From a virus, in IMG/VR virus record IMGVR_UViG_3300023199_000127, positions 1-64,000 of that record: a stretch of DNA of 64,000 nt. One strand, given 5' to 3'. The notes beneath the pieces were generated by a model. The model was not told the DNA's origin and ran no database searches. It saw nothing but the letters and a program-made list of their open reading frames with translations. This document shows positions 12,402-45,087 of the stretch, piece by piece; position 1 is the first letter of the stretch; every line of letters begins with the position of its first letter. The translations under genes and the position numbers were made by a program.

Positions 12402-12940
12402 TGCCCCAGCTACACCCTAATACCATGGTGTACGACGGAGTGAGAGCTTGTCGTGCACGCGAGCTTGGTTCCCCCTATGACTCTTTCCATGCTGTGAAGG
12501 TCGAGACTCATTGGCTGCCGGAAATACGATGCGACGGACGTACGTCATTTACGACGTATGATGGCCAGGTAGCAGCAGAGGATCTAGTGCCGGGGCACTG
12601 GCTGAAGATGCCCCGGCACCAGTTTGATGGCCATACACCCCTGGTGGCTCCTGAGCATCGTGGCACTGTAGATACACATGAGGCTTTCTATACCTTGATG
12701 CGCATGTTCAGTGAGGGGCCGGCTAAGCTTCTGGACATGGATGACTCAGAAATACCTGAGTGGCGAACTAGCAAATGGCTCCCTCTTCCGGTAGATGAGA
12801 GCATGGTGAGATATCACACTGCAATGGTCCGCTGGGACGAAAACGCTTGGTGGTTCCGTGTTTATGCGGTACAAAATAGTGTGGAGCCCCTGGTGTCCGT
12901 GGGTGATTCATACACGATGGCATACGGGATTTTGCTATGA
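12401..12940 (+). CDS. Free-standing Hint/intein-like protein lacking catalytic residues, 179 aa
   Basis: QLHPNTMV resembles block A; VAAEDLVPGHWL resembles WIPASEVVPGDWV in the adjacent intein; WFRVYAVQ..SYTMAYGILL resembles blocks F/G; no Cys1, TxxH or terminal HN. Confidence 0.6.
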   Translation: MPQLHPNTMVYDGVRACRARELGSPYDSFHAVKVETHWLPEIRCDGRTSFTTYDGQVAAEDLVPGHWLKMPRHQFDGHTPLVAPEHRGTVDTHEAFYTLMRMFSEGPAKLLDMDDSEIPEWRTSKWLPLPVDESMVRYHTAMVRWDENAWWFRVYAVQNSVEPLVSVGDSYTMAYGILL

Positions 12941-15900
12941 GTGCAGGTAAGGATGATGTCTTTCTGGATCCCAATTACAACGACTTGGGACTTCCGTATA
13001 TCCCCGAGAGGGATTACCGAGGGAGAAGGTACGAACCCTTTGGCCCTCCGGACAAGGATAACAAGCGGCTCCACTTCTGCACGCAGTGCCAGCTTTACTA
13101 CAGGAAGCTGCACCAAAAAGGCATTACCACCAAGTTCTGTCAAACCGCCAACAATGGGCACTCCTTCCTACCGAATTGTGCCGGCGACGCTTCTCAGCTC
13201 GCCGACGATTTGACCATTGAAGACTTTGATGGGGACGTTGAGGAATACAACGCTGCGGTCATCAATGTGGATCCTGTGTCTTGGGCTGAAATCGAGTTTG
13301 GTTGGAAGGCTCGTTGGTACCAGAAGGAAATGCTGCGTTGTACTTCGCAGTTCAAGGCCACGCGTGCTGGCCGTCGTGTAGGCAAGACCGAGGCGATGGC
13401 AGTCAAAACTCTACACGCTGCCTGGACCAATAAGGGCTTTGAGGTCCTCATCATTGCACCCTACCAGCCGCAGGTGCAGAAGGTTTTCGAGATGATCCGA
13501 CGATTCCTGTCGGAATCCGTCTCCATGAAATCCTCTATTGATATTGATCGTGAATCACCCTTCCAGCAGATCACGCTCAACAACGGTTCTACCATCCGCG
13601 GATTCTCTTCGGGCGCCAGAACCGGTGCCAAGTCTGACAAGATTCGTGGTCAGACTGCCGACCTGATTATCCTGGACGAGGTGGATTACCTGGCGGACGA
13701 TGACATTGAGGTCATCGCCGCTATCCTGGCATCAGAGCCTGACACTAATATTATGGCATCCTCCACTCCAACTGGCATCCGCCAGAAGCTGTGGAGCTGG
13801 TGCTTTGAGGCTGGGACCCCTGTGATGACTTCGACGGGTGAGCGTCCGATTGAGTCCCTGCGGATCGGGGACGAAGTCTTAGGCTGTTCTGGTATCTCCG
13901 AGAAGGTCACGCAGGTTTTCGACCACCACTACCGTGGCCAGATGGTCGAACTGAGCTTTAAGAAGCTCAGTCGAACGCTCAAGAGCACCGCGGAACATCC
14001 TCATCTGGTCAAAAAGGGGCATTGCTCTCCGAAGTGGATCCCGGCATCTGAGGTGGTCCCTGGAGACTGGGTTGGCCTGACTCTTCCGCGCCAGACGCAC
14101 TGTAGGATTCCTCGTCCGGAATTCCAGACGGAAGAAATGGGGTTGAGCCGTTCGGAACGGCCCGACGCTATCTCGAAGATCTTGCGCGACGGTGGTCGCG
14201 GACTTGCCGACGATCGTCGTGGGCAGTCCTACGAGAAGGCCCTTCATGCTTTGGACTGGGTGGAACGGGATCGAGACAGGATCAAGCGGTTTCTTCGTAT
14301 TGTCGGCATCTTTGCCGGAGAGGGGTCCTATCTTGCCGATGGTCGCGGTCTTTCCTTGGTTTTCCGTCGTGATGAACAGATCGGGCAGGAGGTGCGACAG
14401 TTCTTCGATCTCATGTCTAATGCTGTTGGAGGTGGCAAGACGAAGATCGACACCCTGTCCAATGGCCGTGGTGAGTGGGATCAGATTACTGCCCCTGGTA
14501 GCTATCTTCCCCTGATTATGGACCATCTCGTGGGCAGGGGCTGCGCCACGAAGCGATTCCATGATTGCCTGATGACCCATGAGCTGCGCGGCTATCTTTT
14601 CGAGGGGTACATGGACGCAGATGGCCATGAGCGCAAGAATGGCTCGTTGGCACTGATTACGAAGTCTCCCGATCTTGCTGATCAGACTCTGCGTCACTAT
14701 GCCTCTTCGGATGCTGCGGTCTCCTGTAAGGAGCGGGAAGACTATTGGGAGGTCTATGTTTCTCTGAATCCCACCAACCAGGTGAAGTGGTTCGAGGGCA
14801 TGCCTTTCTACATGGTCGAGGACATCGTTTTCTCCGAGTTCGATGGCAGGGTCTATAACATCGAGACTGGATCCACGCATACGTACTCGGCCAATGGGTT
14901 TGCTACGCATAACTGTATCGACAAGACACAGCGGTTCAAGGAGTTCTGGTTCGTCTCCTCTGAGTCCCCGGCGTGGACTTCTGAGACCGAACATTTCTTC
15001 AAGTCGCAGTACTCCAGCTCTGGCTACATGCGAGAGTTCAATGCTGAGTTCGGCATGGAGGCTGTGGGTGTCTTCCGAACCGATGATATCCAGACGGCTA
15101 TCAAGAAGTTCCAGTACAAGGACTGCAAGTACCACGAAGAGTGTAAGTACGTTATGGGAGTGGACTGGAACCATCCTGTAACTGGTACTCATATCGTGGT
15201 TGTTGAAGCCCGTATGAGCGCCCAAGATGGTCTTAGGTATCGTTGTGTCCATAAGGAGATCGTTCGCAAGAATCAGTTCTCTCAGCACTTTGGTGTTGAG
15301 CGCATCATGAAGCTAATGAAGAAGTGGCATGTGGACTACTGTTATGTCGACGCCGGCTATGGTGAGGTACAGGTGGAGATGCTGCACAAGTACGACGTGG
15401 ACCACAAGTCAGAACGCACCCAGTTCCGCAAGAGGGTGAAGGCCGTGAATATGGCCCAGAACGTATTGATCAAGGACCCTGGTACGGGCATTGATATCAA
15501 GAAGCCTGCTAAGCAGTTCATGGTCTCTGTCTTCGCAAAGGACATGGAAGAGAATCGTGTGGAGCTTTCGTACGTCGAGGATACGCAGACCCGTATCCTG
15601 GAGGACGAGCTGGGTATGGCGGACATTGGTATTGTCCAGCAGATGCGCAACTTCAAGGTGGAGAAGATCAGTCCCACTGGCATCCCCAGGTATTCCGATG
15701 GATTTGAGCACACCCTAACTGCTCTCATGTTGGCACACATGGGCTTTGCGCTTGAGATGTCTGACATGCGTATGGTTCGTCGCACGTCTCGACCCGTAGC
15801 CCAGGCTGGTGGCCTGGGCGAAAAGGGTCCCTCAGACCAAGAGAGATCCCAGATTAAGCGTGATCGCATGTTTGATCGTGACAGATTGGCGCCGGCGGAT

Positions 15901-16122
15901 CGTGCTGAAAAGATGGGAGAGAACGTCCGCAGGCACGAAGATTACGAGAAGGAGAAGGAGCTCTGGGAAGCAAACAATATGGAGCCGGTAATCCATCCCG
16001 AGAGTGAAGAGGAAGAAGCTCGACAAAAGCCCAAACGTCGTCGTACCATGAAGGGCATGGGAGTCATCAAGCGCCATAAGCGTCGCCGCGGTACTAGAGG
16101 CGGTGGCAGGAGTACTTTTTAG
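12937..16122 (+). CDS. terL: Terminase large subunit interrupted by an intein (1061-aa precursor, 690 aa spliced)
   Basis: Walker A RAGRRVGKT, Walker B LIILDE, motif III SSTP; RNase H-like nuclease motifs GVDWN and YVDAGYG. Confidence 0.95.
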   Translation: MSAGKDDVFLDPNYNDLGLPYIPERDYRGRRYEPFGPPDKDNKRLHFCTQCQLYYRKLHQKGITTKFCQTANNGHSFLPNCAGDASQLADDLTIEDFDGDVEEYNAAVINVDPVSWAEIEFGWKARWYQKEMLRCTSQFKATRAGRRVGKTEAMAVKTLHAAWTNKGFEVLIIAPYQPQVQKVFEMIRRFLSESVSMKSSIDIDRESPFQQITLNNGSTIRGFSSGARTGAKSDKIRGQTADLIILDEVDYLADDDIEVIAAILASEPDTNIMASSTPTGIRQKLWSWCFEAGTPVMTSTGERPIESLRIGDEVLGCSGISEKVTQVFDHHYRGQMVELSFKKLSRTLKSTAEHPHLVKKGHCSPKWIPASEVVPGDWVGLTLPRQTHCRIPRPEFQTEEMGLSRSERPDAISKILRDGGRGLADDRRGQSYEKALHALDWVERDRDRIKRFLRIVGIFAGEGSYLADGRGLSLVFRRDEQIGQEVRQFFDLMSNAVGGGKTKIDTLSNGRGEWDQITAPGSYLPLIMDHLVGRGCATKRFHDCLMTHELRGYLFEGYMDADGHERKNGSLALITKSPDLADQTLRHYASSDAAVSCKEREDYWEVYVSLNPTNQVKWFEGMPFYMVEDIVFSEFDGRVYNIETGSTHTYSANGFATHNCIDKTQRFKEFWFVSSESPAWTSETEHFFKSQYSSSGYMREFNAEFGMEAVGVFRTDDIQTAIKKFQYKDCKYHEECKYVMGVDWNHPVTGTHIVVVEARMSAQDGLRYRCVHKEIVRKNQFSQHFGVERIMKLMKKWHVDYCYVDAGYGEVQVEMLHKYDVDHKSERTQFRKRVKAVNMAQNVLIKDPGTGIDIKKPAKQFMVSVFAKDMEENRVELSYVEDTQTRILEDELGMADIGIVQQMRNFKVEKISPTGIPRYSDGFEHTLTALMLAHMGFALEMSDMRMVRRTSRPVAQAGGLGEKGPSDQERSQIKRDRMFDRDRLAPADRAEKMGENVRRHEDYEKEKELWEANNMEPVIHPESEEEEARQKPKRRRTMKGMGVIKRHKRRRGTRGGGRSTF
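13801..14913 (+). mobile_element. Intein (371 aa) with a LAGLIDADG homing endonuclease in TerL
   Basis: Starts CFEAGTPV; block B STAEHP; IVGIFAGEGS and FEGYMDADG motifs; ends VYNIETGSTHTYSANGFATHN followed by Cys+1. Confidence 0.95.
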
Positions 16123-34419: not shown

Positions 34420-34917
34420 ATGAGCGACGAACAGCCCGTCAACACTGAACAGTCCCCTGTCGACCAGAGGAATCCCGAGGACAAGGTCCCGGGCCTCGAG
34501 CTGACCTGGGGCATGGTAGAAGCCATGGAGATGGATGAGGCCGAGGAGAAGAACTTCATTTCTGCAGCACAGCAGGCGAAGCAGTCCTTCCGTAGCCCTC
34601 AGTTCATCTTCCTCGCCGGCCGCCCGTACATCCATCGCACGGTGAACCGTCGCGAGATGTCCAAGCTGCGCACGGATGTGGCATTGCGTATCAACCAGCT
34701 TGCTGAGAACGCACCTGAGGGACTGGATCCCCAGCAGGCGCGCGCGCAGCTGATGAAGGACACCATGGAGGAAGCCCTGGTCGAGGCATGCAGCATCTAT
34801 CCGAAGTATGATCGAGTTTCGATCCGCGAAGAGGACGCTGGCATCATCACGAGCCTGCATGATTCCATCGTCGAAGCTTCGGGCTACAACCAGCCTGCAT
34901 CCCCCATTCGCCTGTAA
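34420..34917 (+). CDS. Tail assembly chaperone 1
   Basis: Small acidic helical protein between the tube genes and the TMP. Confidence 0.7.
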   Translation: MSDEQPVNTEQSPVDQRNPEDKVPGLELTWGMVEAMEMDEAEEKNFISAAQQAKQSFRSPQFIFLAGRPYIHRTVNRREMSKLRTDVALRINQLAENAPEGLDPQQARAQLMKDTMEEALVEACSIYPKYDRVSIREEDAGIITSLHDSIVEASGYNQPASPIRL

Positions 34918-34928
34918 GGGGGAGATCG

Positions 34929-35705
34929 GTGATCCGATCTCCTTGGGACCTCCCCCGTGAAGTGAGGGAGCTGGTACCGCGACTCAAAAAGGACCATGAT
35001 GTCCTATACGTGGTGGAGCTCCAGAATGACACAGGGGAGGTCTATGCGATCTTCCGCCCAATGCGGAAGGAGGAGGTGCGTTACCTCGAAGAGAACGCAC
35101 CGTACCACGATGAGTGGTGGATGGAGGGATGGATTATCGGCCACACTTTGGTGTGGCCTGATCCACATGTTCTCGATGAATGGCTTGCTGGGACCGTTGA
35201 GTCGCTTGGTGACTCGATCATCGAGGCTTCCGGATGGTCTTCGGTCGAGGCAACCGTTGAGGGTATTCACCTCGCTAGGCAAGAGGCGACGTCACTGGAC
35301 TCTGCCATTCTCGCGTTTATCTGCAAGGCATTCCCGTCCATCCATCCGCGGGACCTCCAGAAAATGACCTTGCTCGAGACTCAGATCATGCTGGCCCGTG
35401 CAGAGATGATCCTGGGCCAGCCACTCGATCTGCAGATGTTCCTGGATCCGGAGGGGTACCAGAAGAGGCTGAAGCGCCAGCAGCGCTTCCAGCCGCCTGC
35501 CATGCTCCCGGATGATCCGGGTGCATTCGACACTCCGCCGGAGGCCATGCAGCGGCCTCGCCGGCCAACCCGCCCGCATCACAGCTATCTGCCCGATACT
35601 CCGATGGACGAGAAAGAAATGCTTTCTCCGGACGCAGCCACTAAACTTAGGAGTGGAGATTCCCTCCGAGATGAAATGGCTGCCCATCAGGACTTCCTTG
35701 GCTAA
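34929..35705 (+). CDS. Tail assembly chaperone 2 (paralogue of chaperone 1)
   Basis: Own GGGGAG RBS; AGTVESLGDSIIEASGW aligns with AGIITSLHDSIVEASGY. Confidence 0.7.
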   Translation: MIRSPWDLPREVRELVPRLKKDHDVLYVVELQNDTGEVYAIFRPMRKEEVRYLEENAPYHDEWWMEGWIIGHTLVWPDPHVLDEWLAGTVESLGDSIIEASGWSSVEATVEGIHLARQEATSLDSAILAFICKAFPSIHPRDLQKMTLLETQIMLARAEMILGQPLDLQMFLDPEGYQKRLKRQQRFQPPAMLPDDPGAFDTPPEAMQRPRRPTRPHHSYLPDTPMDEKEMLSPDAATKLRSGDSLRDEMAAHQDFLG

Positions 35706-38700: not shown

Positions 38701-40192
38701 GGTGAAGCAAGGTGAGGCTCGTCTACCTGGTGAAGGCTATGAGCGCATGCATCGCCTCCATTCGGGTGCCCACGGTACCTACGATGCCATGGATCGCTTT
38801 CTGATCCTTGCTGACGTCGCACCGTACTCGCAGTCGTATCAGCACTACAAGGCCATTGTGAGCTCGTGGGCTAAGGCCGGTGTGCTTGATTCCTATTGGT
38901 CAGAGAAGTTTGACACTGCTCAGAAGCAGGTCAAGGACAAGCTACAGCAGCACGATTTTACACACCGCCGTTTTACTGGACTGGTTACCGCACCCGAAGA
39001 GGAAATGGAGCGGGTAGAGCAGTGGAATCCCCTCCGACGTAGTGTTGCTGCAGCTTGGGAAGTTGCAACTCACGATGTAGTTTCGCGAGCTGCTGTGGCT
39101 GTTCCGTTTGCTGGTGGCATCCTTGGTAATAAGCTTGCTCCTACCAGATCTCCCATCGAGGCATATCAGAAGTGGGAGTTGTACGGTGAAGACTTCGCTG
39201 ATTGGCGCACACCGTACAAGAGTTTCATTCGTCCGATGGCCCATGAACTCACTGCATCAGATCCTGCCACTGCCACATTTGGTGGTGCTATGCTTGGTGT
39301 CTTTGGCGCCAACCCTCTTTCTCGTCTCGTGTTCTCTGGCGTAGGTGCAGCTCTGGCAGGGACCGCCAGCACGGCACGTGCTGTCGGTACCGGGGAGATG
39401 ACGGGTGGCTATATTCCCAGCCATCGCGAAGAGGAGCGTGAAGCCAAGGAGTATCTGGATAAGCTGAAGTACGTGAAGTATCGCCGTCTCCAGCAGATTG
39501 CTGACGCACAGGGCGACCGTACTCTGGCCTACCAGTACAAGAAGATGGCCGGCCGCACTTTGACTGGCATGGACTACTCTTTGCCTCAGGCACACTTCCA
39601 GGCTGCTGCTCGAGCAGCCATGGGTAAGCGTGAGCGTGGCTACTTTGATGCGTTCACCGAGGTGACGGATCCGGAATCCCGGAAGCGCATTCTAGAGATG
39701 GTGCCTGAGTATATGAAGCAGGTGTATGTAGCCGCGTGGTCCAAGCAGGGCGATCCCAGGATGAGGGCTGCCATGCGAGAGATGCAGCAGAGCGGAGATG
39801 CACGTGCCGCAGAATACTTCCGCAATGTGCGTAAGCCCGACAGCACGTGGGCTGGCTGGCACCCCTCGGTATCCCAGTCTGATATCGCCATCAGACTAGC
39901 AAATCAGGAGGCTTTGGATATTCATCGATTCAACCTCTGGGAGGAACAGGTCAGCGAGAGCGAAGCCAGATTCCCTGATCTGCACGTTCCGGTCGATCTG
40001 TCCGATATCCAGAGAACGCCCAGTATGCTGCGCCATGCCGCCCTGGACACCAGTAGGAAACAGTATCGGGCTGCTAGTTTCACTGGAGGCGGGTTTACTG
40101 CTGCAGGTTTGCACCCTGAGGGTATAGAATTGGATGTGATCCCTGACACTGTCACTGAAGCGTTGAGATACGCTGGGAGTCTATTGCAGTAA
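35705..40192 (+). CDS. Tape measure protein, 1495 aa
   Basis: Large Gly/Ala-rich helical protein after the chaperones, with hydrophobic segments. Confidence 0.8.
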   Translation: MAIERENLQNERGYNPYRDQILGQRGTDERHPAETLRENEAQTKALEIQKAQNPLLQRVAQVAFITSGVYMLGRTRARDALRSALDALGYAGRSGLRVAREGARSAVRGAVGSFPETRSLERAFHGVDDPEIRNLELIDTLEGILNFRRTALDENGFARGLRASRAGGPAGSTFDQIATEHVAARYNLDSLEDLRHVTVGDVMENANLQRQIGERQFRTLSEASELGLINERTVLHRNRNVRGLYTTPEGFIQDTRWATAGNALRGLYTATRNFSVAGFRPVELFAGMGKAFTQGEFFGELGVGTVIGRGRKITAQDGISFAMGGNIYRQQRGGFQHAGSGFKLFSSKEGQSAGLMESFQAIMGMHPLQSHRVAQISQAEADAHPVRDFWQQLQDLVGVGPGFKTRPHVAETFVVYPMRRRQAGRMGGGYVPYSEAGGALAGRQGVGFGYVSRRDQRRGFFEKVVNQLQGLNESDAVAARADESRGFMDRVARTMGVDSGDELSALYGNQQRGAFLSPAGMAEFRRSGTIRGQSLVVQRPTTAASYGTRPARFHTGEVGEASYGRATGRTTVRNYVVHDGGVLGNVNLVGTYMTTRLNNLLSATLNYGIRPGSGSYGWVGNIAKIYGGYQAINMGLDYLSYADYLMEEYTGVSPKKWGLKGYIGLRTGLQKAREVTGVTSAADWIEDTMPGSVDSPLSQALRFAGPMAATFLRGRGPGLSGLAAGTFLGYGDIQKSSEDVYDELIGDKDVAYRRGRWWMLGRQPFGGGPVEFYGKSWIARQLSDYQYTDSLYGSKQEYWRHVNKTPTPSNLFNLFESPEEYLSQKHYYTRPYPVDADGSPARMSEAIFNELPEERDVIPDAGARLGLQDGGTHHDRRAIVGPYGAGGKLGYYADKISELSGIYKFALWDLPGFSNNTDNRRLASPEAMASRSREFYDNSMGGMLGLSEAYRRFLPDEKFNKDYNPIPNQMPDWLPGIRSSFEKDRRYYMDFTLGDPYTKVKQGEARLPGEGYERMHRLHSGAHGTYDAMDRFLILADVAPYSQSYQHYKAIVSSWAKAGVLDSYWSEKFDTAQKQVKDKLQQHDFTHRRFTGLVTAPEEEMERVEQWNPLRRSVAAAWEVATHDVVSRAAVAVPFAGGILGNKLAPTRSPIEAYQKWELYGEDFADWRTPYKSFIRPMAHELTASDPATATFGGAMLGVFGANPLSRLVFSGVGAALAGTASTARAVGTGEMTGGYIPSHREEEREAKEYLDKLKYVKYRRLQQIADAQGDRTLAYQYKKMAGRTLTGMDYSLPQAHFQAAARAAMGKRERGYFDAFTEVTDPESRKRILEMVPEYMKQVYVAAWSKQGDPRMRAAMREMQQSGDARAAEYFRNVRKPDSTWAGWHPSVSQSDIAIRLANQEALDIHRFNLWEEQVSESEARFPDLHVPVDLSDIQRTPSMLRHAALDTSRKQYRAASFTGGGFTAAGLHPEGIELDVIPDTVTEALRYAGSLLQ

Positions 40193-43100
40193 TGAGAGAC
40201 GCCGGCTACGGCTACTATTCCTCCAACCTTGCCAACTATCCCGGCCTCGTTGGTCTCCAGGAAGCAGTTCATTCCACCAACTATGCCCCTGTGCGTAGCA
40301 AGGGCGGTTTGAACATGCTGATTAAGAGACATCGTGAGCTCGGCATGGGCATGGGCGCAACCAAGAACGTTGTGCGTATTGTGAGGGCTCTCGAAGATGC
40401 TGGTGTCCACGATATTGGTATCTCCGTACATGCCAAGGGTGGTGTTAGCCTACGTCTACGACAGGGCCAGATTGCCATCCCGGTCTGGGATAAGGCTCGT
40501 GGTGTTGTGCATATGGGCGCAGATACCATGGCTGGCGCCATGCATCTGGTGCCCACAGGGTCCCGACTCAAGAAGATGGACGTGGCTGATGCATTCGTCC
40601 ATCGTTTCCTGAGCCGTATGCCTAGCACTAGCAAGAAGTATGGCGGTGGTGGATCCGTCAAGCTAGGTAGTGGTAACATGATACGCATTAAGGCGATGGA
40701 TCCTGTGCGTAGCGTAGACGCTCAGGTGAAGGTCCTACAGGACCTGAGCCGTACCGCAAAGACAGAATGGATGCAGACTCTGGCCACACAGAATGGTGAG
40801 AGCCAGCTATCCAAGGCCTACTATCTGCAGAACCGCATCCAGATGGATCTTACAGATATGCCCGAGCTGCAACAGCAGGCAGAGCGTATCGGTGATATGG
40901 TCGCGGCTTATCAGAAGGGTGGCGATCCCACAAAGAAGATTCTCCTGAACGACGAACTCGAGCGAAAGATCCATACGGAAATTCTCGCGTTCAAGAATCG
41001 TCTTCAGGAGGTAGCACCGGATGCGCAGCTGACTGGTATCAAGCCTGAGGCTTTCTTGCCCTTCCTGCGTGAGAATAAGACTGCCAACCGAGTGACCATG
41101 TCTACTCTGGGTCCGCAGATGATGGCCTCCATGTACGAGGAGGATGAGGTTCGTAAGAGCCTGCATCAGATGGTCCTGGCTCGAGTGATGCACCAGGACG
41201 ACATCATGCACGATCCGCAGGTGGCCATGGGCCGAGCAGTGGCTCGTGAATCACTGGGGCGCCGGCGCATCGTTCCTATCGTCACCGAGCATGGGTACAT
41301 GGATCAGATGCGCCAGATGGCAGAACTGCGTGCATTGCGTCAGGGACGCGCTGTGCGTCCTGGCGATATGTACCAGCTGACTACACGTATGCCCTTGACG
41401 GTTGGTCTGATGGATCCTGGCCAGTCGCAGATGGCATACAAGTTCCTTCGGGACCATATCGACGATTCTGGAGTTCTGCTTGGTTCTGAGACTGCACGTA
41501 CCGTGGCAGGCATGGAGTATCGGCACCAGAGCAAGGTGGGCAACGTTCAGACGTTTAAGGCCATTGGGCCTATGGCGGCCCACATCAACGCTTTGAGTGA
41601 AGACTCTCATCATCATATTGGCCTGATCGGATCGGACCTGGCTGCCGAAGGCATGCCGGTCCTCGGAACAGATGCCAGTAGGTTCGTGGGTACCCAGGGT
41701 GCGAAGTCTCTGCGTATGCGTGATCGTATCCTTTTGGGCATTGACCAGGAGACGGGTCGCCAGATCACTATGGGAGCTGGTGACCGTCTAGAGTCCATCA
41801 CTCGTAAGGGTGACCAGTACCACTTCAACATCAAGCGTGCACGTGGTGGCAGTGGTATGGGCGCCGGCTTGCTGGTGGACACACGTCGTGTAGGCGTTAC
41901 TGGCTTTATCAGTCCCGAGGTTGGGGTAGACATTGCGGGTGCTGCTGGAGACTTCGGGATGAAGTTTGGTAGCAATCGGGCCCACACATACCGTCAGTAT
42001 GTAGGTCACGTCTTCACCAGACTGGAGCGATCCGCTCTGGACCAGAAGATGCAGCGCAACGTGATGCGCCAAGTTGGCAAGGCTCTGGGAGCCGATGTCA
42101 ATTTCAAGCAGATCGGTAGCCGCGGCAGGGCATTCGTTACGCTTGCAGCCGGTATGCCTTCTATTGACCGGCTGGTCGAAGCAGCCATGTCCAATGACAG
42201 TAGTACTCTACTGAAGGACAAGGTTGTCATGGCAGCTCTGGCCGACAAGAGCATGACTGAGGCTCAGCGCCAGTCTGTAATCAATGCCTTCCGTGTCGAG
42301 AGTACGCCGATGTCCAAGGTCATGAGATCTATGGGCCATGCCGTGAGTGAGCAACAGGCTGCCGAACTAGAGCGTGCCGGTGCTCGCATGTACAAGTTTG
42401 AGGGCACCCCGGTCCAGTCTCGTCATGTGGATATGCCTTCGAAACAGATGGGCCGCTATGGCATGAACTATACGCTGGCTGATCTCAAACTGTTTGAGAC
42501 TCAGATGGCTGGCACTCAGGGTCATGTCGGTAGAGCGTATCGCACGCTCCATGACTTCCTGCGTCCTGATATCAAGACCTCCGGTGTGGGCTCAGATGCT
42601 TACCGCTTCCTCGGTCAGTTCTATGAGGGTATCGATGGTGCCCATGCAGGACTAATGAAGGCCGATACCTACTCACTGCAGCAGATCGCACAGATGAAGA
42701 ATGTGCCGATCCAGTCCACCGCACAGTATCCGGGTGGTGTGATCAAGGAGAGTGAGGTTGCCGGTTCGCTAATTAGCGGCACCGGCAACAACCTGCGTAA
42801 GGGTGGCTTCTATGTGAAGCTCAAGAAGGGCGATCATATGTCTATCGCTCTCATGGACAGGTTTGGAGCCGGCAAGGGTGGTGTGGCTGCAGTGCGGACT
42901 GATACCGTGTTCATTCCGGGCATGGAGTTCTTCCGCGGGTCAGCTGGACTTGAAGGTTTCAATGAGCTCATCATGCAGGGTGGTTCCAGGTTGGATGGCT
43001 CTGGTGGTATCGAGCGCAAGCTTTTCGGCGACTACATGAATGTAGTTAAGACACTGGAGGATTATGCATCTGGCTCTGCAGATGTGACTGCGCTACAGGA

Positions 43101-45087
43101 AAAGCTGAACCGCTTGTACCTCGGCATGTCCGAAGCTATGGTGGGCAAGGACTCTGTAATCAAGCGTTACTTTCAGCCTGACGATATGATCGGGATGACT
43201 GGGCGAACTGTCACCTCTCCCTTCTTCAACCAGAAGGCAGAGGTGGCTACGGTTGGTATCTATCGCGGCGCACTAAAGCGCGCTGCCAAGAACGGAGATC
43301 CCCGTGCTGTTCAGCTGTTGAAGCGAGCCAAGACCGGCAAGGATATCTACGGTACTGTGTTGGCTTATCCCGGTACCGATGCTGCGCACCACGCTGTGGT
43401 GCGTGTGAAGCTGATGGACAAGCAGCACATCGTTGGGAGTGACTTGGCCAAGCAGGTCGGCAATGAAGGTCTTGAGAACCTGATCTTTACCTCGCCCACG
43501 TTGCGTGCTGCCACCGAGCGAGACCTCGACTTCGACTGGAACTACTTCCGGTTCATCACAGGTGATGAAGCTTCACAGGCTGCATCAGTCGTGCATGGTG
43601 AAACAGTACGTCGACTGGACCCGCTACACGCCTTCATTAACGCTGCTCCTGGGGGTGCTACCCTACGTCAACAGGTCTCCGGCATGACACAGGCCCTCGA
43701 GGAACAGATCGGAAAGGATATCTCCGGCTTCAGTCTCGGTGAACTAGCACAGCGTGAGCAATCCCTCATTGAGGGCTCCGCTGTTCTACGCCAGAAGCTT
43801 AGCTCTCCGCTGACATACTCGTCGTTTGTCAGACAGCAGACTCTGGCTGCGTATATCGGCGAAGACCGTGGTGCCGACCTGGTGATGCGTGCACTGGGCG
43901 CAGCGGACAATAGTCCGACCGCCCAGGCTGTGACAGGCGTGAAGGAGATGCTTGCTGATCCCAAGTTCAGGGATACGTTCTCCAATGCCTGGACTGCCAC
44001 ATACTATGCCGCCCTGAAGAAGGGTGCCGCTGATGAGTCCATCGCCACTATGGTGGGTGATGTACGCAGGCTCACACAGGTTGCCTCCGAGGGCGGACGT
44101 GCTGGGCAGCGAGCACAGGGCCAGCTTGCTGAGAAGATGTTTGGGATCTTCCAGAGATCGACGCCTGGCGAGAATATCCTGATGCGTGTGCTCAATCAGT
44201 CCGGACTCACGGAGGGGGAGCACTACCACGTCGGAGCTGCCGGTGAGGCAGCCCAAGGCGCCATTGAACAGATTGGCGGCAAGGTGTATGTGACACAGCC
44301 TGGTCGTGATCTGCTGATGGAGAGATACTTCAACCCCATGGCAGAAATGCTGGGGAACCTGCAGCACATCGAAGATGCGACTAAGGAGACTGCTCTGTGG
44401 CACGCTCTTCGTCCTCTTGCTGGCCAGACTGCACCTGATTATTCACGCGCCCAGGAAACCATGGGTGTCCTCGACCTGTTGGGTCGAGGCATGAAGGATG
44501 GTGCTTCCGCGGAGCATGTTGGTGATGCCGCGCGTGATATGCAGGCCATGATGGATGCGCTTCAGGACACTGATCCCTTGCTGCACAGGGAAATGATGGA
44601 GACTGCAGCAGAGGCTGGTGGCTACCAGGCTATGGCGGATGGTGCCAGAGCAGCAGCCGGCCGCGGGAAGGATATTTTCAATCGCATCTGGAGCAGCAGG
44701 TGGGGCAAGATCGGGACGATCGGTGCCAGCGCTGTTCTGGGCCTTGAACTCTTCGGTGGCCTGGTGGGCGATGATACTCCCCCGCCTGTGATGGCCGGCA
44801 ATGGGGCTCCTATGCCTCCCACGCCTGCTCTACAGGGCGTTGCCCAGAAGCAGCATCCGCAGCCGTATATCCCTCCCAGGCCGGCACGCATCCAGCGTCC
44901 GGCCTCTATGAGGACCCATGTTTCTGCCACCATGAGGGACACAGCCCCCTCATATGGGCAGACCCGTGGGCACAATAGTTCCTTTCCCTCTCACGGACAA
45001 ATCGATTATCCTGAGAGGGACAGGGGCGAGGTTAACCCCTGGGTGATGCGGAATTATATGAGTCAGCGCATGGTGTCGAGCTACTAG
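40192..45087 (+). CDS. 1631-aa protein with two-barrel RNA-polymerase-like motifs (candidate virion RNA polymerase)
   Basis: beta-like LTVGLM..DDSGVLLGSE (41461), GAGLLVDTRRVGVT..VDI; beta'-like TGRTVT (43198), VGIY, VLAYPG (43357), ATERDLDFDWN (triad 43522-43536). Confidence 0.65.
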   Translation: MRDAGYGYYSSNLANYPGLVGLQEAVHSTNYAPVRSKGGLNMLIKRHRELGMGMGATKNVVRIVRALEDAGVHDIGISVHAKGGVSLRLRQGQIAIPVWDKARGVVHMGADTMAGAMHLVPTGSRLKKMDVADAFVHRFLSRMPSTSKKYGGGGSVKLGSGNMIRIKAMDPVRSVDAQVKVLQDLSRTAKTEWMQTLATQNGESQLSKAYYLQNRIQMDLTDMPELQQQAERIGDMVAAYQKGGDPTKKILLNDELERKIHTEILAFKNRLQEVAPDAQLTGIKPEAFLPFLRENKTANRVTMSTLGPQMMASMYEEDEVRKSLHQMVLARVMHQDDIMHDPQVAMGRAVARESLGRRRIVPIVTEHGYMDQMRQMAELRALRQGRAVRPGDMYQLTTRMPLTVGLMDPGQSQMAYKFLRDHIDDSGVLLGSETARTVAGMEYRHQSKVGNVQTFKAIGPMAAHINALSEDSHHHIGLIGSDLAAEGMPVLGTDASRFVGTQGAKSLRMRDRILLGIDQETGRQITMGAGDRLESITRKGDQYHFNIKRARGGSGMGAGLLVDTRRVGVTGFISPEVGVDIAGAAGDFGMKFGSNRAHTYRQYVGHVFTRLERSALDQKMQRNVMRQVGKALGADVNFKQIGSRGRAFVTLAAGMPSIDRLVEAAMSNDSSTLLKDKVVMAALADKSMTEAQRQSVINAFRVESTPMSKVMRSMGHAVSEQQAAELERAGARMYKFEGTPVQSRHVDMPSKQMGRYGMNYTLADLKLFETQMAGTQGHVGRAYRTLHDFLRPDIKTSGVGSDAYRFLGQFYEGIDGAHAGLMKADTYSLQQIAQMKNVPIQSTAQYPGGVIKESEVAGSLISGTGNNLRKGGFYVKLKKGDHMSIALMDRFGAGKGGVAAVRTDTVFIPGMEFFRGSAGLEGFNELIMQGGSRLDGSGGIERKLFGDYMNVVKTLEDYASGSADVTALQEKLNRLYLGMSEAMVGKDSVIKRYFQPDDMIGMTGRTVTSPFFNQKAEVATVGIYRGALKRAAKNGDPRAVQLLKRAKTGKDIYGTVLAYPGTDAAHHAVVRVKLMDKQHIVGSDLAKQVGNEGLENLIFTSPTLRAATERDLDFDWNYFRFITGDEASQAASVVHGETVRRLDPLHAFINAAPGGATLRQQVSGMTQALEEQIGKDISGFSLGELAQREQSLIEGSAVLRQKLSSPLTYSSFVRQQTLAAYIGEDRGADLVMRALGAADNSPTAQAVTGVKEMLADPKFRDTFSNAWTATYYAALKKGAADESIATMVGDVRRLTQVASEGGRAGQRAQGQLAEKMFGIFQRSTPGENILMRVLNQSGLTEGEHYHVGAAGEAAQGAIEQIGGKVYVTQPGRDLLMERYFNPMAEMLGNLQHIEDATKETALWHALRPLAGQTAPDYSRAQETMGVLDLLGRGMKDGASAEHVGDAARDMQAMMDALQDTDPLLHREMMETAAEAGGYQAMADGARAAAGRGKDIFNRIWSSRWGKIGTIGASAVLGLELFGGLVGDDTPPPVMAGNGAPMPPTPALQGVAQKQHPQPYIPPRPARIQRPASMRTHVSATMRDTAPSYGQTRGHNSSFPSHGQIDYPERDRGEVNPWVMRNYMSQRMVSSY

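Follow-up and report, generated by a model that had tools for sequence, protein, structure and literature searches.

Which protein fills the tape-measure slot of an uncultured contractile-tailed phage, and could it be a polymerase, are the questions raised by the locus described here. The window, meaning the whole stretch of DNA analysed, comprises positions 1 to 64,000 of the IMG/VR record IMGVR_UViG_3300023199_000127, a 180,792-bp virus representing a 181-kb contractile-tailed phage known from metagenome alone. At 40192-45087 (+) it carries an uninterrupted reading frame of 1631 codons, located where an initial annotation of the nucleotide letters had placed it, whose product is here designated P0001. 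That annotation proposed a virion-delivered, single-chain, two-barrel RNA polymerase (RNAP) encoded directly behind the tape measure gene. The reading towards which we lean, built on sequence comparison and structural models, is that P0001 is itself the tape-measure-slot protein of a phage of the 0305phi8-36 type and may be a virion-delivered single-chain two-barrel polymerase, the myovirus counterpart of gp96 of Thermus phage P23-45.

Conserved residues and predicted fold of P0001

A profile of residues 340-1210 searched exhaustively over 1.84 billion representatives disclosed a P0001 family of six clusters in total, all of them metagenomic. The family alignment consists of six sequences with 25-39% identity to P0001. 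The DLDFD sequence noted initially at residues 1111-1115 is present in the translation, and none of R1110, D1111, D1113 and D1115 varies in any of the six clusters, even at identities of about 25%. The same holds for G985, S988, G1004, G1022, Y1059, P1060, H1066 and V1070, and, further upstream, for R869, G871, G872, F873, L877, P909, G910, G946 and D947. Dibasic motifs are conserved at 565-566 and 869-870, and the conserved blocks recorded for the region 1215-1500 are R1200-Q1201, W1267 and K1276-K1277.

AlphaFold2 modelling of residues 930-1215 from the six sequences gave a predicted local distance difference test score (pLDDT) of 68.1 and a predicted template modelling score of 0.64, with pLDDT values of 76-91 in the barrel, and the five models of the run agreed (62.6-68.1). 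The model displays strands at 1001-1008 and 1020-1024, helices, strands at 1052-1058, 1067-1075 and 1097-1100, and a helix at 1102-1108, after which the DLDFD loop and a strand at 1116-1121 complete the order of a double-psi beta-barrel (DPBB). DLDFD occupies the loop joining the second helix of the barrel to its final strand, flanked in model numbering by helix 173-179 and strand 187-192, the same place as NADFDGD in the RNAP beta' subunit.

A Foldseek search of this model against PDB gave 199 matches with E ≤ 1e-3, and the best 50 of the 199 are all RNAP largest subunits, led by the AR9 non-virion RNAP (4e-5) and followed by bacterial beta'. Matches in the BFVD viral library were giant-virus, pox and baculovirus-type RNAPs, jumbo-phage beta' subunits, crAss-like proteins and a siphovirus 'minor tail protein'. 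P23-45 gp96 (8H2M/8H2N) and gp66 of phi14:2, a crAss-like phage of Cellulophaga (6VR4), are absent among the fold matches listed, which weighs neither way. The best superposition of the P0001 barrel was obtained with the beta' subunits of multisubunit RNAPs (RpoC, the AR9 and phiKZ non-virion RNAPs, and the 561-amino acid (aa) beta' of this phage), which share its order of strand, strand, helix, three strands, helix, DxDxD loop and strand. Unlike P0001, these are separate subunits recognisable by Pfam; P0001 is without R425 of NRAPTLH and without the small residue before D460.

Residues ~1000-1122 are predicted by the model to form a DPBB-A of the beta'/Rpb1 type, and a DxDxD motif conserved in the homologues is predicted to precede the last barrel strand, both being features by which membership of the two-barrel superfamily is judged. 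The beta'-type catalytic barrel of the initial annotation is in this respect borne out by the predicted fold, by RNAP largest subunits as best structural matches and by an invariant DxDxD in the proper loop. It had named the lack of a barrel, or an unconserved motif, as grounds for giving up the proposal; for DPBB-A a barrel was predicted and the motif is conserved.

Two segments were considered for the second barrel. The segment likened to beta in the initial annotation, at 398-585, has P401, G410, S412, D425, R565, R566 and G571 conserved in five sequences; its AlphaFold2 model has a pLDDT below 50, hhalign comparison with the DPBB-B regions of gp96, gp64, gp66 and beta gave probabilities below 1%, and no result obtained favours the likeness to beta. 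The beta-rich segment 860-930 is, in the models, an alternative candidate for part of this barrel. ESMFold2 pairing of 380-929 with 930-1215 yielded interaction prediction scores from aligned errors (ipSAE) of 0.71, 0.78 and 0.70 (best control 0.00; partner pLDDT 60; at least 34% of contacts agreeing), a pairing largely to be expected when a single chain is divided in two at 930. The confident contacts to the barrel module all involve 760-929, with the invariant R869-[KR]-GGF...PGME among them, and 398-585 contributes none.

C-terminally, a Gly/Ala-rich hydrophobic segment at about 1500-1527 precedes a Pro-rich linker and a tail of the form W..M..Y...R...SS[FY], conserved in all six sequences. 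The segment appears to resemble the membrane segments of tape-measure and ejection proteins.

In the family member P0008 (726 aa; JGI 3300010430, 3.8-kb contig) the chain begins at the equivalent of about residue 859 of P0001, shortly ahead of the R-[KR]-GGF block, which represents either a real split into two genes or an assembly or frameshift artefact. A genuine split would point to a boundary between modules that recalls the one between beta and beta'.

Outside the family, no match of P0001 was found in Pfam (E ≤ 1), PHROGs or NCBIfam, nor by tblastn in 50,697 phage records. Comparison with PDB sequences by phmmer gave only CsrA at 552-613 (E 0.008), regarded as chance. Pattern scans of IMG/VR and JGI metagenomes revealed no further relatives, a word-indexed search with the core alignment gave, among the matches listed, only two, both known members, and ESM Atlas contained no usable match for 860-1215 or P0008.

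The tape-measure slot in cultured phages

The position of P0001 was deduced from its neighbours. The start codon overlaps the stop of an upstream 1495-codon ORF (open reading frame; product P0002) in a TAATG, the coupling noted in the initial annotation, with GGGAG 12 nt upstream, and the TAG stop abuts the ATG of a 2204-codon ORF (P0003). P0002 matches ORF145 of Bacillus phage 0305phi8-36 (phmmer, 4e-76) and CDS0026 of Moorella phage MTATph1 (1e-66), with tblastn matches to virion structural proteins of WH1, ME3 and KLEB27-3, while P0003 matches the hub protein ORF147 of 0305phi8-36 (phmmer, 5e-16). In 0305phi8-36, gp145 and gp146 were both found in virions by mass spectrometry, and gp146, named 'hypothetical tape measure protein', owes this assignment to a length that fits the tail (PMC2147016). 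Since the flanks P0002 and P0003 are homologues of gp145 and hub gp147, P0001 fills the gp146 slot. The location 'directly behind the tape measure gene' has to be amended accordingly: the upstream giant is a gp145 homologue, not the tape measure, and P0001 itself occupies the slot. In 0305phi8-36 the chaperonin genes stand one gene away from the tape-measure slot, and the putative chaperonin pair of the present phage is placed likewise.

By synteny, P0001 appears to be encoded in the tape-measure position, as expected of a tape-measure-fused RNAP of the gp96 type, which does not imply that it measures the tail. The gene order, namely intein-containing terminase, capsid, sheath, tube proteins, two small ORFs, P0002, P0001, P0003 and baseplate wedge, is preserved at all loci of the P0001 family. 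Like P0001, gp146 sits between P0002- and P0003-type homologues; unlike it, gp146 has 2537 aa and is without DxDxD. The ruler role in 0305phi8-36 was given to the gp146 slot and the polymerase role to orf99 (PMC2147016), a separate QDE-1-like gene. A match of the family hidden Markov model to ORF146 (2.8 bits, at 'IDHDPASFRIF', in a helical context) was judged to be chance. The slot proteins compared (P0001, those of WH1, ME3 and 0305phi8-36) are not alignable with each other.

Two cultured jumbo myoviruses, vB_BceM_WH1 (Bacillus) and ME3 (Acinetobacter), carry giants in the same slot, gp095 of 2515 aa and gp36 (ME3_36) of 1603 aa. WH1 gp095 reads FTNRYPTINK...KADHDGD and ME3_36 reads SREP...GGDHDQD, the RxP preceding DHDxD by 38-43 residues in both; at its motif WH1 gp095 has a PF00623 match below threshold (E 0.09, residues 1941-2013). 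Unlike P0001, with which they do not align, nor with each other, they retain the canonical Arg and the small residues around the motif; N-R-Y-P-T of WH1 gp095 stands at the place equivalent to the Y1059-P1060...H1066 loop of P0001. A published statement that either is a polymerase was not found in the literature. As flanking genes tie the cultured phages WH1, ME3 and 0305phi8-36 to the uncultured one, the idea is directly testable at the bench.

Further observations concern this region. The slot protein of MTATph1, CDS0027 (L022:10513-14442 (+), 1309 aa), contains at residues 962-1065 an exonuclease domain of the RNase T-like kind (PF00929, 5.4e-5), and a transposase gene is inserted directly after it. 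The hub homologue adjoining the family member P0004 (L001:14761-21762 (+), 2333 aa) has an SNase domain, whereas P0003 shows no SNase in Pfam; giant hubs exchange enzymatic domains. Among the closest relatives, the P0002 homologues hardly differ in length (1494, 1494 and 1516 aa), and those of P0001 vary (1578-1758 aa).

Possible polymerase or polymerase relic

Both precedents named in the initial annotation, gp96 and gp66, are real. P23-45 gp96, with counterparts in P74-26, G20c and TSP4, is a virion RNAP fused to the tail tape measure, was found through a DxDxD in the tape measure and transcribes the first (pre-early) phage genes (PMC10770324). Like P0001, it is a giant in the tape-measure position whose DxDxD barrel has hundreds of residues N-terminal to it and whose hydrophobic segment comes later in the chain; neither is recognisably similar to cellular RNAPs beyond the motif, and both phages encode a second, non-virion polymerase. 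For the present phage this is the only other polymerase of the genome, a compact pair encoded on the opposite strand in the replication arm, at 150.9-154.7 kb, with a beta of 590 aa and a beta' of 561 aa; it is of the multisubunit type, not a paralogue as in the case of gp96. The two proteins differ in that gp96 belongs to a siphovirus and has 5002 residues, a long ruler part and a canonical R-N-P...G-V-DFDGD, whereas P0001 belongs to a myovirus, has 1631 residues, is without the Arg, reads Q/E-R-DxDxD with bulky residues and shows no sequence homology to gp96 (hhalign probability below 1%).

The phi14:2 protein gp66 (PDB 6VR4) is, as P0001 would be, a single-chain, two-barrel polymerase packed in the virion and encoded by the middle one of three giant genes in succession (g067/g066/g065 with 1797, 2180 and 1421 aa, compared with 1495, 1631 and 2204 aa for P0002/P0001/P0003). 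The sole hhalign match of the family profile on gp66 falls on DFDID and is not significant. Unlike P0001, gp66 belongs to a podovirus, where the giants are cargo proteins rather than tail-slot genes, and reads R-I-P...G-S-DFDID; there is no demonstrable homology.

Several points weigh against a polymerase in this slot, and the first group concerns the sequence. A PF00623 search of the genome at E ≤ 10 found only the phage's own beta' and did not see P0001. Comparison of the family profiles by hhalign with gp96, gp64, gp66, RpoB, RpoC, the phage's own beta and beta', WH1 gp095 and ME3_36 gave probabilities below 2% throughout (0.1-1.8% for gp96 and gp64, with no alignment on the motif), and a profile search of PDB with the family gave 0 matches. 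The peptides quoted in the initial annotation are all present (~400-433, 512-518, 555-582, 991-1028, 1055-1062 and 1099-1117), as is the TAATG; its by-eye alignment to E. coli beta' did not hold up: the Smith-Waterman score of residues 980-1135 against beta' 325-490 was 26, against 27.3 +/- 3.8 for shuffles (z = -0.34). With no similarity above chance, sequence similarity does not carry the polymerase claim, while the invariance of the motif carries some of it.

The motif itself deviates. An [RK]-x-P 20-100 residues upstream of DxDxD served as a filter in PMC10770324 (Supplementary Data 4), and in gp96, gp64, gp66, RpoC and the phage's own beta' an R-x-P stands 38-44 residues ahead of [GAS]-D-x-D-[GI]-D. 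This feature was looked for and is missing in five of the six family members, the sole match (P0007) being elsewhere; the family reads [AHGT]-Y-P 51 residues before DxDxD, so that the Arg/Lys of RxP is lost, in agreement with the substituted NRxP arginine reported initially. In addition, an Arg directly precedes the first Asp where the references have a small residue, Phe, Trp or Leu stands between the second and third Asp instead of Gly/Ile, and no Pro follows strand 6, the last of the barrel. Lacking the filter feature, P0001 cannot be filed as a regular superfamily member. As judged from the sequences, the motif of its family is the most deviant among those compared, and P0001 would be a protein that resembles a two-barrel polymerase in its working or descends from one.

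The structural evidence has its own weak points. The fold comes from one AlphaFold2 model with a shallow six-sequence alignment, AlphaFold2 may lean on remembered RNAP structures, and the DLDFD loop has a pLDDT below 50. The predictions cover DPBB-A alone, without a second barrel, a bridge helix or a trigger loop. The slot proteins of MTATph1 and 0305phi8-36 both lack DxDxD, hence a polymerase is not obligatory in the slot; and that P0001 is present in virions, ejected and active we infer.

Many of these points would fit a protein that derives from a polymerase and no longer makes RNA, that is, a tape-measure or ejection protein keeping barrel and triad for a structural, metal- or DNA-clamping or other nucleotidyl-transfer role. 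To such a protein would belong the loss of an arginine universal in the references, the Arg before the first Asp and the aromatic residue between the second and third, the undetected second barrel and bridge helix, the existence of related slot proteins without DxDxD, and a separate beta/beta' polymerase in the same phage. We regard this explanation as doubtful, though the strongest of the alternatives. The Arg and the three Asp do not vary among sequences that elsewhere share about 25% identity, as is typical of a working active site; Y-P, H, G1004 and G1022 near the loop are invariant too, and the example of P23-45 gp96 indicates that very odd polymerases are active in a comparable setting.

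In cellular enzymes the RxP arginine touches the RNA 3' end. Because this arginine is lost, an invariant Arg is gained beside the first Asp and the triad has bulky residues, an injected two-barrel polymerase of altered chemistry was also envisaged, with a different substrate, template or product (primer or DNA as for PolD, or a non-templated or signalling nucleotide); P0001 may in that case act only jointly with the miniature beta/beta' enzyme. This we consider unlikely; if true, the family would count as a new variant in catalysis and not as one more virion RNAP.

It is quite improbable that P0001 is just a tape measure or tail-lumen protein of the ordinary kind that evolves fast, with a DxDxD of no catalytic meaning and a barrel that is an artefact of the shallow alignment. 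The slot was indeed assigned to the tape measure in 0305phi8-36, P0001 has no sequence similarity to polymerases, and by our own estimate roughly a tenth of 2000-residue proteins would contain DxDxD with an upstream [RK]xP by chance. In a first run from three sequences, AlphaFold2 modelled residues 340-1210 with an unusable pLDDT of 39.8. Yet even with that 871-residue model Foldseek placed beta' chains on top, though at non-significant E values of 0.3-0.9, both runs give the same order of strands and helices around the motif, as do the agreeing models of the second, P0001 mixes strands and helices unlike a long helical ruler rod, R-D-x-D-x-D is invariant across the family, and WH1 gp095 has its weak Pfam RNAP match at its own motif. 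Least probable of all is a generic or lytic double-psi barrel (MltA, RlpA, expansin) or p97 N-domain-like adaptor using the Asp triad in glycan cleavage or calcium binding, as RNAP largest subunits outrank generic barrels in two independent searches (108-135 versus 78-111 residues aligned), DxDxD is placed in the RNAP-specific loop, lysin-like functions already reside in the hub P0003, and P0001 gives no Pfam DPBB, 3D or lysin match.

If P0001 is a virion-delivered polymerase, it would assemble with P0002 and the hub P0003 into the tail or virion and be ejected with the DNA, the C-terminal hydrophobic segment anchoring it in or at the membrane. It would then transcribe the first phage genes, as gp96 does, possibly including the beta/beta' genes, and the beta/beta' polymerase would take over transcription thereafter. 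Prediction and conservation place the invariant R-D-x-D-x-D loop where RNAPs bind the catalytic Mg2+, and residues 760-929 are predicted by ESMFold2 to pack onto the barrel module. Infection by this phage probably begins with the injection of a very diverged polymerase of its own.

No description of a polymerase occupying a myovirus tape-measure slot was found in the literature, the published cases being the crAss-like gp66 and the P23-45 group; experimental knowledge of virion-delivered two-barrel RNAPs is confined to podoviruses of the crAss-like type and siphoviruses of the Thermus P23-45 group. If the polymerase reading is true, this strategy would reach a third tail type, that of contractile-tailed jumbo phages, with a single-chain injected enzyme paired with a second enzyme of the multisubunit type, a combination not found described in the literature, and a whole class of 'tape measure' genes would have to be re-annotated. 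The deviant active site would also test which residues a two-barrel polymerase needs.

Coordinates and other features of the genome

The features discussed are collected in Table 1.

Table 1 Features of the P0001 locus and slot proteins of two cultured phages. Coordinates without prefix are positions in the window.
Feature	Position	Strand	Remarks
Two small ORFs (165, 258 aa), position of two-gene tail chaperonin	34420..35705	+	synteny
P0002, upstream giant, 1495 aa	35705..40192	+	homologue of virion protein verified by mass spectrometry; not tape measure
P0001, candidate virion polymerase in tail slot	40192..45087	+	1631 aa; ORF and translation
Beta-like segments, residues 398-585 (candidate)	41383..41946	+	partly conserved
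Beta-rich segment 860-930 (R869-[KR]-G-G-F...P909-G-M-E)	42769..42981	+	predicted to pack on barrel module
Predicted RNAP-type double-psi beta-barrel DPBB-A, residues ~1000-1122	43189..43557	+	
Y1059-P1060...H1066 loop, barrel strands 3-4	43366..43389	+	counterpart by position of RNAP N-R-x-P-x-x-H, without Arg
R-D-L-D-F-D (R1110, D1111, D1113, D1115), putative metal-binding catalytic loop	43519..43536	+	translation; invariant in six clusters
Gly/Ala-rich hydrophobic segment ~1500-1527	44689..44772	+	Kyte-Doolittle peak 1.68 at 1507-1525
P0003, giant baseplate hub with lysin-like region, 2204 aa	45088..51702	+	phrog_20474 1.4e-34; tblastn to baseplate/hub proteins
WH1 gp095	L025:8593-16140	-	annotated only as virion structural/hypothetical
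ME3 gp36 (ME3_36)	L024:5173-9984	+	annotated only as virion structural/hypothetical

From their position, which matches that of ORF143/144 of 0305phi8-36 and of ME3_33/34, the two small ORFs ahead of P0002 would be the tail chaperonin pair. The large terminase gene lies at 12937-16122 (+) and encodes 1061 aa; matches to Hint and intein-splicing domains mark an intein that interrupts it.

The first 126 or more bases of the record (within 1-150) recur at 180,642-180,792, the two copies having (GT)n microsatellites of unequal length. This terminal overlap of at least 126 nt indicates that the genome is complete, i.e. a circular or terminally redundant assembly despite the 'linear' record. A shared early-promoter motif was sought as 11-mers in the intergenic regions, and only a microsatellite and one tandem repeat were found. 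At 175,228-175,315, outside the window and within a 687-bp non-coding gap, the 22-bp unit CTCTATGGACAGCTACCTAGTG occurs four times in tandem, an array that looks like iterons or an array of binding sites.

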